DNA of 64,000 nucleotides. It comes from Escherichia phage EC.P2. The DNA is taken from sequence record PQ631072.1. One strand, given 5' to 3'. The position numbers and the translations under genes were made by a program. The first letter of the stretch is position 1. Every line of letters begins with the position of its first letter. Under the pieces are notes generated by a model, which was not told the origin of the DNA, did not search any database, and saw nothing but the letters and a program-made list of their open reading frames with translations. Below are positions 1 through 63,896 of the stretch, in pieces.

Positions 1-302
1 AGCGACTAGGTAGATTAGTTAAAGATTACGATGAAGCTACTTGGACTTCTTTACGGGAGAAGATTGTCAAGCGTGGTTTGTATCTTAAATACACACAAAA
101 TGAAGATCTCAAAAATAAACTTATCGCTTACGCAGATAAGGAGTTCGTAGAGGCAAGCCCTTATGATTCTATTTATGGTATCAAAATGGGGATGTGGGAT
201 CGTGATGTGGAAAATAAGGACTGTTGGAAAGGACAAAATCTTTTAGGAAAATGGCATACAGACCTTGCTGTTTATCTAAAAGCACAATCTGATATTTCCT
301 GA
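1..302 (+). CDS. NADAR-domain (YbiA-like) protein, C-terminal fragment; 5' end outside window
   Basis: In-frame translation from base 3 ends ...KEFVEASPYDSIYGIKMGMWDRDVENKDCWKGQNLLGKWHTDLAVYLKA*, matching the conserved C-terminal block of the NADAR family as recalled. Confidence 0.55.
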   Translation, partial: RLGRLVKDYDEATWTSLREKIVKRGLYLKYTQNEDLKNKLIAYADKEFVEASPYDSIYGIKMGMWDRDVENKDCWKGQNLLGKWHTDLAVYLKAQSDIS

Positions 303-11739: not shown

Positions 11740-11820
11740 AATAATAATCATTCTCATTTATAGCTGATTATTTATGCAATAAACTGAATAATGCAATAAT
11801 GATAATCATTCTTAACTTAA
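11740..11820. promoter_or_regulatory. Fur-box-like repeat cluster (second region)
   Basis: aatgataatcattctcatt and aatgataatcattctt. Confidence 0.4.
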
Positions 11821-11829
11821 GACCATCTA

Positions 11830-12130
11830 ACCTATAAAATAATAAGTTATCTAACTAAATTAAAACTAATTATCTTACTTTTATTTATAACTTACTGTTA
11901 CTACCTCATTGATAACCTTATATTAAACAACAATAACTAATATAAATCATTACTAAGCTAAATATAATCTATCTAACCTTTAAAACTATAACTATAATCT
12001 ATTTAATTATTGCACAAAGTAACTATTAAATCGTTAGTAACATTACTAAATAATTAATATCCTATCTATTTATGATCTAATCTTTACCTTACTATCTATT
12101 ACCTAAATAATCATTTCGTACCGTAATCAT
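11830..12130. repeat. About 300-bp tract almost devoid of G on the + strand, with degenerate short repeats
   Basis: Only about a dozen G in about 300 nt by eye; strong strand compositional skew. Confidence 0.6.
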
Positions 12131-12654
12131 TTCATACAATAATTATAACAAGAAATATAATTCGCAAGCGTATCATTAGCAGCCTATGCCGGACACATAG
12201 GCGGCTAATAATAACGCAACTACACATCCCACATAATAACCATCACCGATAGTTATTATTTGTGCTTATGTAGCTTGCAACAACTGCAAGCGCAACAATA
12301 TACATGGTATATTGTATTCCCTTACATTGTTGCGGTGCGTTATTATTAGCTAATGTTTGGAACATTGGCTATAATATAAGCTATCCAATAATAAACATAG
12401 TGAATAATAACCCTGATGATCATAATGCGCCACCTTCCAGGGGGCGCTATGTGAACACAAAGAAATCTTTCTTGTCAAGAAAAATATTACCATTATTGCG
12501 CAAAATTATTTACATCTGAATAGATGGTTTTTCATACTATTGCCCCCAAATTATGCCCCTTTTGTTGCAATATAAACTACTATTTGTTGAGCCTACTTTC
12601 TTAAAAGCGCAATAAATTAGAATTATCTTGATTTTTAGGACGTTTTATAGTATA

Positions 12655-12885
12655 GAAAGTATGCAAATGATAATCATTATCAGCTATCTTCCACGGGTGG
12701 CACTATTTCACGCAGGATCATTTCATTTGGCAAGGTGTATATAGATGTTTAGACTTGCCAAGTCATTGATTTACTTAGAATTTATCTGTTTTGTTGGGAA
12801 TAGTGCCTTTATTGTTCAGAAAATAATCAAAAGTCTTATAAGTCATTGAATGATAATGCAAATGATAATAATTCTCATTGATATT
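12655..12885. promoter_or_regulatory. Fur-box-like repeats incl. perfect core aatgataatcattatc (12664-12679)
   Basis: Also gaatgataatgcaaatgataataattctcatt near 12845. Confidence 0.45.
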
Positions 12886-24744: not shown

Positions 24745-25557
24745 TTATTTAGTCAAATGATCTTCTATCATTTTTATGAAAGCAGGATTGCTAAAAGCAT
24801 CTGCGGCTTTTTCTCGATAAACAAAGACTCCTCTATCTTCGTAAAGAAGAGTTTCTTCGTAATTAATTCCTGGGTTAACAACAATCATTTTTGTACCCAT
24901 ATTAAGTGCAGGGAATAATTCCCAATTAAAATTGATAACTTGGTTTGAACATCCTACTACAACAACCAAATCTTGCATGGTCAAAGTATCAAACAAGTGA
25001 GCCATATCTGCATACAAAGGTGCAGCCTCACCAAAAAATACAACATTAGGCTTCACCCAGTTATAATCATCTATGTTTATGCTGTTGTAACCAATATCTA
25101 CCAGTGTTTTGTAATCTCCAGGATGCATACGGTAAACTACTTCAGGAAGATATCCGTGCACGTGAATAACCGAATCTCTGTCTACACCTGCTCGCTCTAG
25201 TAGATCATCAACGTTTGTTGTCAAGTTTATTACTTGGTTAGGATATTCCTTAAACCACTTTGCTATTTGAATATGTGCAGCATTAGGTTGTACATCTTTA
25301 AGCTCAACACGTCTTTTGTTATAAAATTCGTGTGTTTTGGCATACAAATCCATACCATTTTCGTCTACACCACCAACCACTGGAAGATCTGGAGATGTTC
25401 TCACACGATAACCTGCTTGGAAAGCTCCAATATCGCAGACCTCTTCTAAATCATATTCTTCCCATAAAGCACGACCACTATCTGTGTCTGTTCGGAATGT
25501 TCGAATCCCACTGTCTGCACTTAAACCTGCACCACTGACAAAAATTACTCTTCGCAT
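24745..25557 (-). CDS. Sir2-family (sirtuin-like) NAD+-dependent enzyme, no zinc-ribbon cysteines (270 aa)
   Basis: GAGLSADSGIRTFR, TTNVDDL, HG and VVFFGE motifs; no CxxC pairs. Confidence 0.7.
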   Translation of the reverse strand: MRRVIFVSGAGLSADSGIRTFRTDTDSGRALWEEYDLEEVCDIGAFQAGYRVRTSPDLPVVGGVDENGMDLYAKTHEFYNKRRVELKDVQPNAAHIQIAKWFKEYPNQVINLTTNVDDLLERAGVDRDSVIHVHGYLPEVVYRMHPGDYKTLVDIGYNSINIDDYNWVKPNVVFFGEAAPLYADMAHLFDTLTMQDLVVVVGCSNQVINFNWELFPALNMGTKMIVVNPGINYEETLLYEDRGVFVYREKAADAFSNPAFIKMIEDHLTK

Positions 25558-26152: not shown

Positions 26153-26182
26153 ATTATACCAGACTTTTAAGGTAGTTGTCAA
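26153..26182 (-). promoter_or_regulatory. Consensus sigma70 promoter on minus strand (TTGACA-N18-TATAAT) for the acidic protein/Sir2-like pair
   Basis: Reverse complement of 26153-26182 gives ttgaca ... tataat; followed by GC hairpin 26113-26137. Confidence 0.55.
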
Positions 26183-26765
26183 GTGCTTCTTGATCACCTT
26201 GACAAACATAGCAACGGAAATCTTGAGCAGAAGGTTCTTTGTCCTCTTCCCAATCCCAATAGACAGTACCTTTATAGCGTGAACCTGGGAACTCGAAGTA
26301 TGCTACGTGGGTAATATGGTGTGGGCCACCCCAAAACTCTGTAAAAGTAAATTGAGGATATGCTGCTTTAACTGTATTTTCAAACCAAGTTTTACGATCT
26401 AATGCTTCGTTTATAAAATAAGCATGGCGTTCCATTTCATCCCAATCTTTCCAAACGCATTTTTCATCCAGGGAAAAAACAAAATTCTCACTGTTAAAAT
26501 CGTCTGTATCTGATTCCAAAATATCATAATCATATGCGCTAGGTATCCACCATCCAGCTTCTAATAGTGCTTTCGCAGGTACAAAACCTTTTTCAGCGTA
26601 TTGATCAAATTCTTTTACTCTACGTACAGTGCAGTATTCATCTTCACCACCAATGTCCAGCATACAAGCGCCTTTGCGTCTTGCTGCAAGACCATGTGTA
26701 TCAAAAACTACAACACTACCTTCACCATCTTCACGATCTACTTGATATGCAACTTTTTGAGTCAT
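26154..26765 (-). CDS. Hypothetical protein (203 aa)
   Basis: ORF. Confidence 0.55.
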   Translation of the reverse strand: MTQKVAYQVDREDGEGSVVVFDTHGLAARRKGACMLDIGGEDEYCTVRRVKEFDQYAEKGFVPAKALLEAGWWIPSAYDYDILESDTDDFNSENFVFSLDEKCVWKDWDEMERHAYFINEALDRKTWFENTVKAAYPQFTFTEFWGGPHHITHVAYFEFPGSRYKGTVYWDWEEDKEPSAQDFRCYVCQGDQEALDNYLKSLV

Positions 26766-26888
26766 ATTACCCCCAATGTATATGGGAAATTAACCAAAAG
26801 ATAAATTCCCAAAAACACCAACCAAGAAAAGTTAATGGAATTATAAAAGCTATCAGAGCAGTCTTCCAGCCTTTCCACAATGTTTCCA

Positions 26889-27878
26889 TCATTCCTCCAT
26901 ACACTTAAGAATATGTGCAATGACAGGTATAGTCCAACCATTACCTAACATCTTATATGCTTGTGTGTTACTACTCACTTTAAAGTAATCATCTGGAACA
27001 CCTTGTAAGCGGCAACACTCTTTAACCGTTAACTTTCTATAATGCACGCCTTCGCTCAATTTTTCAAAGGCATCCAGATATCTTCCAGGTGGAATGTAAG
27101 CTAATAGTACATCTTTCGGCACAGTCGTGAGGCAACGAGTTTTTTCACTGTCTTGAACTTCCAAGCAATGTACCAAACGATCAGTTTTAGATGTACTACG
27201 TTTGCCATTTTCATTAATTCTACGCCCATATATTGCTGCTGGATAAAAAGCCAGTTGTCTGCGACTCTTTTCAAAATACTGTTCTATATTACCACCTTTG
27301 GCATAATTTGCATCTATGCAATAAGCCTTATCTCTGTCTACGATACTATCATCTTCAATGATATCTTGCAACACTTCATTGGTAATATCCCAAGGTTTTA
27401 TTTCCCAATTGCACCAGTATAAACGTTGTCTATTCTGTGCAGTGAAATCTGCGGAGTTAATGAATACGGGATCAACACCTAAGTAACTTGTGATCACGTT
27501 TTCCCACTCCACCTTCATCTTAACGTTTTCAAGCATGAACTTAACATTAGGGTTAAACTTTTTAATATGTTCAAGAATTTCAACATATTCAAAGAACAGT
27601 TTAGATCGCGGATCTTGAAAGTTCAAACCCTTACCAGAAGAAGAGAAGCCTTGGCACGGGCTACCACCTAACAAAAGATCAATTTCTCCCCACGGGATAT
27701 CCCATTCTCTCCATTTTGTAACATCCCCTAATTGAATAATGTCTGGAAAATTGGCTTGGCTTTCAGCTATGGCAAATTTGTCCAATTCTGAGGCATAATA
27801 TTTATCTACTTCAATACCTGCACTTTTTAGTGCAAGCATTCCTCCTGACATACCATCAAAAAGACTTAAAACTTTCAT
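26889..27878 (-). CDS. DNA (cytosine-5)-methyltransferase
   Basis: Motif I FDGMSGG, motif IV GGSPCQGFS, motif VI ENV, C-terminal GNGWT. Confidence 0.85.
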   Translation of the reverse strand: MKVLSLFDGMSGGMLALKSAGIEVDKYYASELDKFAIAESQANFPDIIQLGDVTKWREWDIPWGEIDLLLGGSPCQGFSSSGKGLNFQDPRSKLFFEYVEILEHIKKFNPNVKFMLENVKMKVEWENVITSYLGVDPVFINSADFTAQNRQRLYWCNWEIKPWDITNEVLQDIIEDDSIVDRDKAYCIDANYAKGGNIEQYFEKSRRQLAFYPAAIYGRRINENGKRSTSKTDRLVHCLEVQDSEKTRCLTTVPKDVLLAYIPPGRYLDAFEKLSEGVHYRKLTVKECCRLQGVPDDYFKVSSNTQAYKMLGNGWTIPVIAHILKCMEE

Positions 27879-28291
27879 TATTGCTTCTTCTCCTTAACAC
27901 TAGCTGGTAATTCTGCCTTAAGGCAGAAGTTTAAACGGTAAGCCTCATTTTCATTTAAAAGTACAGATTCACACGATAACCAAAACAAGAGATCCTCAAT
28001 ACTAGGACTGTGGAGCCAACAGTGCAGAAGAGAATGTTGTTCTATATCAATGTAATTTAGCAACAAGCCTTGTAAGGCGTAACTAGTTCCTGTCGCTTTT
28101 GCTTTTTCAAGGATGATATTGTGTTTACTAACAACCTTCTTTCTAAGACCAAACCATTTACTAACAACAACAGTCTCTTCTTGTAGTTGTTTTCTTATTT
28201 TCTCACATTCTTTAACTACAATCTGCATCTTATCCACTGCTGATTGAAGTTGTTCTTTTGTTGGGTTTACAAAATAGTCACTATAATACAT
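27878..28291 (-). CDS. Hypothetical protein (137 aa)
   Basis: ORF with RBS gaggag. Confidence 0.5.
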   Translation of the reverse strand: MYYSDYFVNPTKEQLQSAVDKMQIVVKECEKIRKQLQEETVVVSKWFGLRKKVVSKHNIILEKAKATGTSYALQGLLLNYIDIEQHSLLHCWLHSPSIEDLLFWLSCESVLLNENEAYRLNFCLKAELPASVKEKKQ

Positions 28292-60257: not shown

Positions 60258-61151
60258 ATGAAAGTTAGTATTCTGCATGGTGTTGACTGTTATGTTACTG
60301 ATGTAGACGTTAAAGTGTTTACATTCTCTGGTGGAGAACAACATGTTCAATTAGATACGAATCTATCAGGTTTCAATCATGCTACAGACAGAATCTTACT
60401 CACTTTAGAAGTAAGATCTGCTAAAGACTTGATGACTTTGGTTATGACTAAGAATGCATTGGACAATATGCTATATCATAAACCATATTGTGTTGATTTA
60501 CTCATGTTGTATGTGCCGTATGCACGACAAGACAGAGTGTGTGAGCCTGGGGAAGCATTCGGAGTTAAAGCATTTGCTTCTATAATTAATTCATTAAATT
60601 TCTCACGTGTTATCGTTGCTGATCCGCATAGTGATGTTACTCCAGCAGTGTTTGACAGACTCTGTGTAATACCTCAAGAAGAGATTGCTTACGAAACTTT
60701 AAAGTGGAAGTTACGTATGGAGAATTTTGCTCTTGTTAGCCCTGATGGTGGTGCTCTTAAGAAAATATTTAAATTATCTAAGAAAATGTCTTTAGATGTG
60801 TTCTGTGCAGAGAAGGTTAGAGATACCGCAACAGGTGCTATTGTTCGTACAGACATTTCTGTACAGGATTTCAATAAGCGTAACCTGATGATCGTAGATG
60901 ATATCTGTGATGGTGGTAGAACTTTTATCGAATTGGCTAAAGTGCTACGTGCTCGTAACGCAGGTAAGATTGAGCTATATGTTACGCACGGTATCTTTTC
61001 TAAAGGTCTTAAAGAGTTAAGTGAGCACTTTGACTGCATTCATTCTCTTAATGTGTGGGAAGATAACATCCAAGAAGATTCTGGTGTTCTTGTTAAGAAT
61101 CAGTCAGATTTGCAACAACAAATTGTATCTCCATACGTGTGGAATTTTTAA
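60258..61151 (+). CDS. prs: Ribose-phosphate pyrophosphokinase (Prs) family protein; candidate ADPR-PP synthetase of a NARP1-like module
   Basis: YARQDR, VSPDGGA and IVDDICDGGRT Prs-type motifs. Confidence 0.8.
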   Translation: MKVSILHGVDCYVTDVDVKVFTFSGGEQHVQLDTNLSGFNHATDRILLTLEVRSAKDLMTLVMTKNALDNMLYHKPYCVDLLMLYVPYARQDRVCEPGEAFGVKAFASIINSLNFSRVIVADPHSDVTPAVFDRLCVIPQEEIAYETLKWKLRMENFALVSPDGGALKKIFKLSKKMSLDVFCAEKVRDTATGAIVRTDISVQDFNKRNLMIVDDICDGGRTFIELAKVLRARNAGKIELYVTHGIFSKGLKELSEHFDCIHSLNVWEDNIQEDSGVLVKNQSDLQQQIVSPYVWNF

Positions 61152-61161
61152 ATAATAAGTG

Positions 61162-61190
61162 TTGACAATAGGGAGTATGCTTAGTAAGAT
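61162..61190 (+). promoter_or_regulatory. sigma70-like promoter (TTGACA-N17-taagat) overlapped by inverted repeat gggagtat/atactccc
   Basis: Hexamers and 8-bp inverted repeat read directly. Confidence 0.5.
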
Positions 61191-61222
61191 ACTCCCACAT
61201 TAACAAACAAGGAGACATAACT

Positions 61223-62956
61223 ATGAATATTTTTGCACCTTTTGCTACTGATTGGTACAAACCTGGTCACAAGCAGATGTACAACCAAAATACAAAACTT
61301 ATTTTCTCTAATTTAACTCCTCGTAATGATAAAAACTTTGCACACTATGCAGATCGTGAAGCACGTGGTGTGATTGTTTTAGGTATTCGTCGAGCAGTCA
61401 CTGATGCTCTTGTAACTATGTGGGATAGCTTCTTTAAAATGTCTCGTAGTGCAGCAGTAAATAAGTTTTATCGTATGTCTAAAAATGCATTAGGTGCTTC
61501 TGCGCCTTCTGCTGAATGTTGGGGAGAATTGCACGACTTAGGTTATCTTCCGCTGGAAGTTCGATCTCTGCCAGAGGGTGTTTTGTGTCCTATTGGTGTT
61601 CCTGTATTTACTGTGCATAATACTTTAGAAAAATTCTTTTGGTTAACTAACTATGTGGAAACACTGTTGTCAGATGAAACTTGGAAGACAATGACTAATG
61701 CCACAGCAGCTTTTCAGTATAAGCGTATCGCTATGGCATATGCGATGGCAACGTGTGATAATATTGATCACGTTAACTTCCAGTGTCATGATTTTAGCCT
61801 ACGTGGTTTAAGTAATATCGAAGATGGTTATAAGAGTGGTATCGCTCACTTGGCATCGTTCACAGGAACAGATAATATTCTGGCTATTGAAACTGTGCAT
61901 GATTATTATGGTATTGATTATGATCAGTTTGTTGCAGGTTCGATTCCGGCAACAGAACATTCAGTAGCAACGACTAACATTGGAGCTATTGTTGAAGATC
62001 TGAAGAAACATTTCCCACATCTTAAAGATGATGTAGATGGGCTTCGTTATGTAGCAGAAAAAGAGTTTCTTCGTCGTTATATCGAAGAAATTGTTCCAGA
62101 AGGTTTTTGTTCATATGTAGCAGACTCTTATGACTATTGGGCTGTATTGACTCGCATTCTGGTAGAATTGAAAGATTCCATTATGTCACGAAATGGTCGT
62201 CTTGTTATTCGTCCAGATTCAGGAGATCCGGTTAAAGTTGTTGCAGGATACAATGTTGAATCTTTTGATAACTATGAAGACCTTTTAAATAATGGTATTG
62301 CGACAGCCACTGAAGTAGTTCATTTGGCTGATGTTAATAAGTATTACAATGTTCTTCAGGATTGCAGTGTTGCTGATTGCATTGATGAAACTTATGAGAT
62401 TCCTTATTGTGAAGCAGTAGGTTCTATTCAAATTCTTTGGGAAGTGTTTGGTGGTACTATCAACCGAAAAGGCTACAAGGTTCTTGATCAGCATATCGGT
62501 ATGATTTATGGTGATTCTATTACTGTTGAACGAGAACACGAGATCTTACGCCGACTGAAGAAGAAAGGTTTTGCAGCTTCCAATATTGTATTTGGTGTTG
62601 GTAGTTATACTTATCAGTTCAATACACGAGATACTTTTGGTTTTGCTGTTAAAGCAACAGGTAGTATCATCGGTGAACACGAAATTTTGGTAAGTAAGGA
62701 GCCTAAAACTGATCCTGGTAAACGCTCTGCAAAAGGTTTTATTAAGGTTGTTAAGGATACCAATGGTAATCTTTCTCTTGTAGATAATCTTTCTTTTAAA
62801 GATATCCAGGATGAAGACAATGAGTTACAAGTTATCTTCAAGAATGGTAAGGTTATTACACCACAAGTAGAAGGTCGTGATGAAACATTCACTGATATCC
62901 GCAACCGTGTTGATGTAGAGGTTCTTCGTACTATGGGAACCATCCAGGTTGACTAA
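61223..62956 (+). CDS. nadV: Nicotinamide phosphoribosyltransferase (Nampt/NadV) family protein with C-terminal extension
   Basis: N-terminal FATDWYKPGHKQMY characteristic of Nampt; 577 aa. Confidence 0.8.
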   Translation: MNIFAPFATDWYKPGHKQMYNQNTKLIFSNLTPRNDKNFAHYADREARGVIVLGIRRAVTDALVTMWDSFFKMSRSAAVNKFYRMSKNALGASAPSAECWGELHDLGYLPLEVRSLPEGVLCPIGVPVFTVHNTLEKFFWLTNYVETLLSDETWKTMTNATAAFQYKRIAMAYAMATCDNIDHVNFQCHDFSLRGLSNIEDGYKSGIAHLASFTGTDNILAIETVHDYYGIDYDQFVAGSIPATEHSVATTNIGAIVEDLKKHFPHLKDDVDGLRYVAEKEFLRRYIEEIVPEGFCSYVADSYDYWAVLTRILVELKDSIMSRNGRLVIRPDSGDPVKVVAGYNVESFDNYEDLLNNGIATATEVVHLADVNKYYNVLQDCSVADCIDETYEIPYCEAVGSIQILWEVFGGTINRKGYKVLDQHIGMIYGDSITVEREHEILRRLKKKGFAASNIVFGVGSYTYQFNTRDTFGFAVKATGSIIGEHEILVSKEPKTDPGKRSAKGFIKVVKDTNGNLSLVDNLSFKDIQDEDNELQVIFKNGKVITPQVEGRDETFTDIRNRVDVEVLRTMGTIQVD

Positions 62957-63703: not shown

Positions 63704-63779
63704 GGTTCCATAGCTCACTGACGAGAGCGCACACCTCATAAGTGTCGAGGGCAGGGATTGTAACCCTGGGGAACCACCA
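63704..63779 (+). tRNA. tRNA with CAT anticodon (Met, or Ile if lysidinylated), CCA encoded
   Basis: Manual cloverleaf: acceptor ggttcc/ggaacc, D-stem gctc/gagc, anticodon loop cuCAUaa, T-stem caggg/ccctg. Confidence 0.7.
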
Positions 63780-63810
63780 TTTAAAAGGAGGTGCTATGCA
63801 TCTCCTATAT

Positions 63811-63896
63811 GCAAGTGTGGTGGAATTGGTGATACACATTGTGCTTAAAACGCAACGCTTAAATGATTGAGGGTTCGAATCCCTCCACTTGCACCA
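63811..63896 (+). tRNA. tRNA-Leu (TAA anticodon), type II with long variable arm, CCA encoded
   Basis: Acceptor gcaagtg/cacttgc, anticodon loop cuUAAaa, 13-nt variable arm, T-arm gaggg-ttcgaat-ccctc. Confidence 0.75.

Follow-up and report, generated by a model that had tools for sequence, protein, structure and literature searches.

An orphan NADAR gene of probable anti-DarTG1 (AdfN) type at the start of a sequenced window of the phi92-like Escherichia phage EC.P2

The DNA analysed here, hereafter the window, is a stretch of 64,000 nucleotides from Escherichia phage EC.P2 (PQ631072.1), and it opens inside a gene. Positions 3-302 on the plus strand hold 99 sense codons and a TGA stop at 300-302. 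Read from position 3, the translation is RLGRLVKDYDEATWTSLREKIVKRGLYLKYTQNEDLKNKLIAYADKEFVEASPYDSIYGIKMGMWDRDVENKDCWKGQNLLGKWHTDLAVYLKAQSDIS*, and bases 1-2 are the final two bases of the codon for K84. A previous interpretation, made from the letters of the window without database searches (the sequence-only reading), had placed this fragment in the NADAR/YbiA family and taken the gene to be cut by the window edge. Both points hold. The two motifs on which it relied are present, FVEASPYDSIYGIKMG at residues 132-147 and NLLGK at residues 163-167, and the complete gene measures 552 bp and encodes 183 aa in all four relatives inspected at full length (Bas62, SD2, Bas60 and muut). The visible part corresponds to residues 85-183 of the 183-aa NADAR protein, the C-terminal 54% of the gene.

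The Pfam NADAR profile PF08719 (DUF1768) matches the fragment alone with 84.6 bits (E=1.2e-23) over profile positions 72-154 of 163. The curated cut-off of this profile is 35.1 bits, and the match is far outside chance. A profile search had been proposed by the sequence-only reading as a check on the family; run with the full-length ortholog of phage Bas62 it gives 125.5 bits on PF08719. The same ortholog matches phrog_1017 (E=6.8e-50) and the PADLOC model PDC-M42C (E=1.5e-34), and it matches the NCBIfam model 'DS32_2 NADAR family anti-phage protein' weakly, with 26 bits against a cut-off of 240. The matches to PDC-M42C and DS32_2 mean only that candidate defence systems also contain NADAR domains.

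The features of the gene are given below. PnNADAR is the NADAR protein of Phytophthora nicotianae, solved with ADP-ribose (8BAU). Residue roles follow Schuller et al. 2023 (PMC11543638), and the chain index of 8BAU equals the numbering of that paper plus 2.

1..302, plus strand: 3' end of the NADAR/AdfN gene (residues 85-183 and stop), from translation, PF08719 and identity to bas60_0111 and bas62_0106
12..14, plus strand: codon for R88, counterpart of PnNADAR R79 (pyrophosphate contact), from the phmmer alignment to 8BAU with roles from PMC11543638
42..56, plus strand: codons for W98 (42-44) and R102 (54-56), counterparts of PnNADAR W89 and R93 (pyrophosphate contacts), from the 8BAU alignment and PMC11543638
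150..167, plus strand: E134-A-S-P-Y-D139, with the codons for E134 (150-152) and D139 (165-167), counterparts of PnNADAR E125 (the distal-ribose glutamate) and D130, from the 8BAU alignment and PMC11543638
231..248, plus strand: conserved C-terminal motif G161-Q-N163-L-L165-G166, from an alignment of 62 homologs
Upstream of the window: E47, counterpart of PnNADAR E43 and E. coli C7 NADAR E88
Upstream of the window: K54, counterpart of PnNADAR K50 and E. coli C7 NADAR K95
Upstream of the window edge: K84, counterpart of PnNADAR K75 and E. coli C7 NADAR K115

The sequence-only reading had made its family assignment depend on the NADAR catalytic residues, and the full-length orthologs carry E47, K54, K84, R88, E134 and D139. 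The first three of these fall outside the window in EC.P2; Bas60, Bas62, SD2, muut and the cluster representative P0001 all carry them. In the alignment of 62 homologs, which reaches down to 36% identity, E47, K54, K84, W98, E134 and D139 are invariant, as are G161, N163, L165 and G166 of the C-terminal motif. R88 is conserved there in at least 90%, and R102 is not among the conserved positions. One position is regarded as a hallmark: Asp is found in the DarT1-linked antitoxins, His in the T4-type phage NADARs, and Glu in the NADARs that are neither DarG1 nor T4-like (PMC11543638). The hallmark residue of the phage protein is Glu (E134).

An AlphaFold2 model of the cluster representative P0001, an ortholog 98% identical to the phage protein, has a mean pLDDT of 96.8 and displays the YbiA-like fold, an alpha-helical core with two small flanking beta sheets. 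Foldseek searches of the PDB with this model gave significant matches only to 8BAU (TM 0.77) and to E. coli YbiA, 2B3W (TM 0.67). By sequence (phmmer), the only solved structures matched were 8BAU, with E=2.4e-12, and marginally 2B3W, with E=0.032. No DarG1 structure was matched, either by sequence at E<=10 or by Foldseek with the ortholog model. Compared with bacterial homologs of 157-160 aa, the phage protein has insertions of its own at about residues 26-40 and 70-80.

The first 3 kb of the window share 97-99% DNA identity with phi92-like E. coli myoviruses of the genus Justusliebigvirus (Stephanstirmvirinae). Among these are W22, SD2, PHB05 and the BASEL phages Bas60 (PaulScherrer) and Bas62 (JohannJBalmer). 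Over 25 kb the best relatives found by megablast in the phage collection are mosaic, with 95.5-98% identity. The region downstream of the gene is syntenic in relatives at about 97% nucleotide identity. The NADAR fragment is identical to bas60_0111 in 97 of 99 amino acids, with D96A and T178A as the only differences, and to bas62_0106 in 98 of 99, with the difference T96A. Residue 96 varies among the relatives between D, T and A, and both D96A and T178A fall at non-conserved positions. Codons of the fragment differ from those of the four relatives synonymously at 5-7 positions and non-synonymously at 1-4, and this excess of synonymous changes fits purifying selection on a live gene.

A tblastn search with the 183-aa protein found NADAR homologs in 716 of 50,697 phage records. 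In 55 records the homolog reaches at least 95% identity, and query coverage is 80% or higher in 699 of the 716. The carriers are mostly large myoviruses, namely Staphylococcus K-like, Listeria, Enterococcus and Bacillus phages, Phapecoctavirus (with 56-59% identity), rV5-like phages and jumbo phages. This distribution agrees with earlier surveys (Iyer et al. 2022). The metagenomic protein cluster P0012 holds, from public assemblies, a frameshifted allele of 103 aa that is identical up to about residue 96 and then runs out of frame, so the gene is occasionally lost or mis-assembled. Also, 19 records labelled as Campylobacter phages match EC.P2 DNA; one of them, MG065639.1 'Campylobacter phage A150', covers 98% of the first 25 kb with 96% identity. 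The host labels of these records look doubtful, through mis-assignment or contamination.

In the relatives, the start codon of the NADAR gene abuts the stop codon of a gene for a CapR/T5orf172 (GIY-YIG-type) homing-endonuclease-like protein, which is itself preceded by a gene for an AAA ATPase. The homing-endonuclease-like gene was located in the sequences of relatives as follows.

L001 6578-7750; L002 6761-7750; L003 1-1250; L005 14399-15589: CapR/T5orf172 gene, directly upstream of the NADAR gene

Its product is 330 aa long in SD2, 390 aa in Bas62, about 397 aa in muut and more than 416 aa in Bas60. Such variable length among near-identical phages suggests ongoing rearrangement at this junction. 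No ART or DarT domain was found by Pfam in the five upstream gene products of relatives, nor by PADLOC and PHROGs in the three that were searched with these as well. A toxin-antitoxin pair with an adjacent ART or DarT toxin is hence rejected, the upstream neighbours being only the homing-endonuclease-like protein and the AAA ATPase. With no ADP-ribosyltransferase nearby, the NADAR gene is an 'orphan antitoxin', as published.

On its 3' side the NADAR gene is followed by a non-coding gap of 1.6 kb that is nearly free of ORFs. Rfam, tRNA and promoter/terminator scans of this gap found no known RNA family. Just 3' of the gene, at 501-721, a unit of about 70 nt is repeated three times in tandem, and the units share 72% identity. 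Each unit carries ATTTAAAGTTTTT ... GAAAATGAAAA(G/C)TTCAA and lacks an Rfam match; they may be phage promoters in an array, or else repeats of the iteron kind. Within the otherwise AT-rich gap, positions 860-1400 form a GC-rich island in which several hairpins occur. On the minus strand of this island a strong sigma-70-like promoter is predicted (1113-1085, 11/12). An 88-aa ORF on the minus strand, at 1116-1382, is annotated as hypothetical in Bas60, Bas62 and SD2 and has no Pfam match.

Clusters of Fur-box-like palindromes lie in two long non-coding gaps of the window, at 742-860 and at 11742-11814 and 12663-12877. The 7-1-7 motif TGATAATNATTATCA, allowing at most 2 mismatches, has 11 matches in the window against 1.09 expected, and none of 100 shuffles reached 11. 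Eight of the 11 fall in the two gaps, four at 744-834 and four at 11742-12877; the match at 12668-12682 is perfect. For the 19-bp Fur consensus, 5 matches were found where 0.05 are expected. Conservation of the region in relatives is about 96-97%, and at the corresponding positions the record of phage muut has no annotation beyond 'repeat_region'. No relevant paper on Fur boxes in phi92/rV5-like phages came up in a literature search. From the motifs we regard it as possible that these arrays are iron- or Fur-responsive promoters, or that they titrate Fur.

The nearest characterised counterpart of the NADAR protein is AdfN^Bas60, the anti-DarT factor NADAR of the BASEL phages Bas60, Bas61 and Bas62 (Johannesman, Carlson, Awasthi and LeRoux; bioRxiv 2024; Nat Commun 2025, PMC11825919). 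In that study, which searched the BASEL collection, ectopic expression of the Bas60 protein neutralises the DarT1 toxin without other phage factors, and with it RB69, T5 and Bas25 regain full titre on a host that carries DarTG1; it is of no help to T5 against the thymidine-modifying DarTG2 (PMC11825919). The same study grouped AdfN^Bas60 with bacterial NADARs that are neither DarT-associated nor of the YbiA type, and inferred independent capture by phages. We equate bas60_0111 and bas62_0106 with AdfN^Bas60 on the statement in PMC11825919 that Bas60, Bas61 and Bas62 encode AdfN, together with the annotation 'putative YbiA-like N-glycosidase'. These two are the genes annotated as YbiA-like in the inspected stretches of the Bas60 and Bas62 records.

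EC.P2 shares with AdfN^Bas60 (Phi92_gp223 in the type phage) the gene, its genomic position, the genus and the downstream non-coding region, and differs in the two substitutions given above, a comparison that covers residues 85-183 only. We regard the gene as an ortholog of Bas60-type AdfN by its 97/99 identity to bas60_0111 and the syntenic downstream region. It is very probable that the gene at the start of the window encodes an antitoxin-like orphan NADAR, of the same type as AdfN^Bas60, with which this phi92-like E. coli phage counters DarTG1. The assignment is based on family, fold, residue conservation and near-identity to a tested protein. The EC.P2 copy is presumably full length, and it would serve EC.P2 in the same way. 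Reversal of DarT-type guanine ADP-ribosylation had been put forward by the sequence-only reading as an activity of NADAR proteins, and it gains support from AdfN^Bas60, identical in 97 of 99 residues, which neutralises DarT1 and rescues phages from DarTG1 (PMC11825919). In the literature on anti-DarT NADARs we found no report of a Justusliebigvirus in which the gene was deleted.

We suggest the following course of events. The host toxin DarT1 would attach ADP-ribose from NAD+ to guanine in the phage DNA, by which replication is blocked. The phage NADAR would then cut the N-glycosidic bond between ribose and guanine, so that ADP-ribose is released from N2 of guanine and replicable DNA is restored. 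By this removal of ADP-ribose the phage would escape the DarTG1 abortive-infection system. It should be noted that the NADAR of phage T4 is active in vitro yet gave no protection from DarT1 in one assay (Cihlova et al.), so specificity in vivo differs among NADARs.

As the ortholog of an experimentally characterised anti-DarTG1 factor, the gene is already known. Many Justusliebigvirus records label it 'hypothetical protein', 'YbiA-like N-glycosidase' or 'GTP cyclohydrolase II'; the fitting name is AdfN, or anti-DarT1 NADAR. The practical value of the assignment is re-annotation, and the understanding of DarTG/NADAR systems is unchanged by it.

Among other known NADAR proteins, DarG1 (the BC4488 family; E. 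coli C7, G. lovleyi) does the same job as AdfN^Bas60, in that it removes ADP-ribose from guanine and neutralises DarT1 in cells. However, DarG1 sits next to DarT1, whereas the phage NADAR gene is without a DarT neighbour. The N-terminal beta1-beta2-alpha1 extension of DarG1 would find no room in the phage ortholog, where the model places the first strand of the core, E7-10, at the very start. Further, D171-x-E173 of E. coli C7 DarG1 corresponds to F132-V133-E134 in the phage protein, with Phe in place of the catalytic D171. Membership in DarG1 was rejected on these three differences and on the lack of a match to a DarG1 structure. AdfN^T4 (T4 gp30.3) is likewise an orphan phage NADAR that counters DarTG1. 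It belongs to a separate, DarG1-related clade with His at the hallmark position, and it needs the T-even context, whereas AdfN^Bas60 is independent of other phage factors. The closest solved structure is that of PnNADAR, which has 28% identity to the phage protein and shares with it the residues that contact ADP-ribose, including the Glu at the E125 position. PnNADAR differs in being a eukaryotic stand-alone protein, and its W133 is replaced by Tyr (Y142) in the phage protein.

PnNADAR belongs to the general 'NADAR' family, and this bears on whether DarT1-modified DNA is the main target of the phage protein. In both the general NADAR family and the YbiA type, the members that were tested, PnNADAR not being named among them, strip guanine-ADPr as well as cytidine-ADPr from DNA and RNA; DarG1 and T4 NADAR do not remove cytidine-ADPr (PMC12945103). 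From gene context, Iyer et al. 2022 argued that the targets of phage NADARs are for the most part soluble derivatives of ADPr, and the 716 phage records with homologs include phages of Gram-positive as well as Gram-negative hosts. The main target could accordingly be cytidine-ADPr, guanine-ADPr in RNA or small ADPr-derived immune signals, with the reversal of DarT1 as only one facet. We consider this unlikely. Activity against DarT1 and DarTG1 is the one activity assayed for the Bas60-type protein, and the outcome was strongly positive, with phages at full titre (PMC11825919). Moreover, a broader target range would extend the explanation by anti-DarTG1 activity instead of excluding it.

It is very improbable that the gene encodes a YbiA-type N-glycosidase that destroys reactive intermediates of riboflavin biosynthesis, as metabolic damage control. 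The NCBIfam model TIGR02464, 'riboflavin biosynthesis intermediates N-glycosidase', does match the full-length ortholog with 109.7 bits, above its cut-off of 73.7, and gives the fragment 67.4 bits, below that cut-off, and sequence by itself does not separate the two activities. E134 places the protein on the YbiA side of the hallmark, away from the Asp of DarG1 and the His of the T4 type; the BASEL annotation and the 'GTP cyclohydrolase II' labels on relatives point the same way. E. coli YbiA also has the same fold (TM 0.67-0.73) and the same Glu. However, its direct similarity to the phage protein is marginal (phmmer E=0.032, against 2.4e-12 for PnNADAR), and the phage gene is without the riboflavin or LexA-operon context; no riboflavin genes and no RibA/RibD fusion are found in the NADAR neighbourhood of the relatives. 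YbiA gave no protection from DarT1 in cells (Cihlova et al.), whereas AdfN^Bas60 does protect, and it was placed with NADARs that are neither YbiA nor DarG1 (PMC11825919). The TIGR02464 model appears to capture Glu-type NADARs broadly, and its name is compatible with activity on ADPr since E. coli YbiA also hydrolyses guanine-ADPr in vitro (Cihlova et al.). Lastly, such damage control is of no evident use to a lytic phage.

Least probable of all is that the gene in EC.P2 is a decayed or truncated remnant without function: the 5' 46% lies outside the window, a frameshifted variant exists in cluster P0012 and the variable-length gene directly upstream in relatives indicates a recombinationally active locus, but the 99 visible codons are intact with all conserved residues in place and mostly synonymous differences, 55 records hold the gene at 95% identity or more, nearly all homologs (699/716) cover at least 80% of the query, and the four relatives all encode 183 aa.

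Returning to the NADAR as an anti-DarTG1 factor of the AdfN^Bas60 type, the sequence-only reading had also set the gene within a theme of NAD+/ADP-ribose chemistry, together with Sir2-like and 'Prs/Nampt' genes. These genes exist in the window.

24745..25557, minus strand: Sir2-family gene, 270 aa (PF02146 E=1.5e-22; 'sirtuin family protein' in Bas62)
60258..61151, plus strand: Prs-like gene, 297 aa, Adps of NARP1 (PF00156/PF14572; 99.3% identical to phi92 gp107; N-terminus identical to the orthologs of Osterman et al.)
61223..62956, plus strand: Nampt-like gene, 577 aa, Namat of NARP1 (PF04095 E=5e-38; N-terminus matches the orthologs of Osterman et al.)

The theme stands as far as the presence of the genes goes. 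They are located 24 and 60 kb away in separate transcription units, and there is no shared operon. The label 'Prs/Nampt' needs revision in that the pair is not a classical PRPP/NMN salvage route; its genes are catalogued as Adps and Namat, the two enzymes of NARP1. In brief, phage Adps converts ADPR to ADPR-PP, Namat makes NAD+ from ADPR-PP and nicotinamide, and NARP1 counters defences that deplete NAD+ (Osterman et al.). The Adps orthologs of phi92, Bas60 and Bas62 are in the Adps/Prs table of that study, and their Namat orthologs are listed in its supplementary tables as 'Adps-associated'. By adjacency and catalogued orthologs, the predicted products of 60258-62956 are identified as NARP1 (Adps and Namat). 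The annotations 'phosphoribosylpyrophosphate synthetase' and 'nicotinamide phosphoribosyltransferase' are out of date for these genes, and NARP1 (Adps/Namat) is apt. As for the sirtuin, most phage sirtuins are predicted to act in RNA repair (Iyer et al.).

The thread shared by these genes is counter-defence against host immunity that consumes NAD+, by separate and mostly already described modules; it is not a new pathway. A phage with both AdfN and NARP1 is expected to be resistant to DarTG1 and to NAD+-depleting systems (SIR2-HerA, DSR and type I Thoeris), and this is relevant to the prediction of host range in phage therapy. It is unlikely, though conceivable, that the Glu-type NADAR acts on cytidine-ADPr or on guanine-ADPr in RNA and protects beyond DarTG1, or that it is metabolically coupled to NARP1. 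Under such coupling, DarT1 would turn NAD+ into DNA-bound ADP-ribose and nicotinamide, and the NADAR would free the ADP-ribose, the substrate of Adps. Adps and Namat would then rebuild NAD+ from it and close the cycle.

Genes for tRNA-Met (CAT) and tRNA-Leu (TAA) are located just 3' of the NARP1 pair, at 63704-63896 on the plus strand; Rfam at its gathering threshold recovers only the tRNA-Leu there. On the minus strand, at 26154-28291, three ORFs of 203, 329 and 137 aa separate the Sir2 cluster from the conserved gene that comes next; Bas62 lacks them at that position. The 329-aa ORF encodes a Dcm-type C5 cytosine DNA methylase (PF00145 E=2e-43). The segment looks like a strain-specific insertion, and from its predicted products it probably provides anti-restriction methylation.
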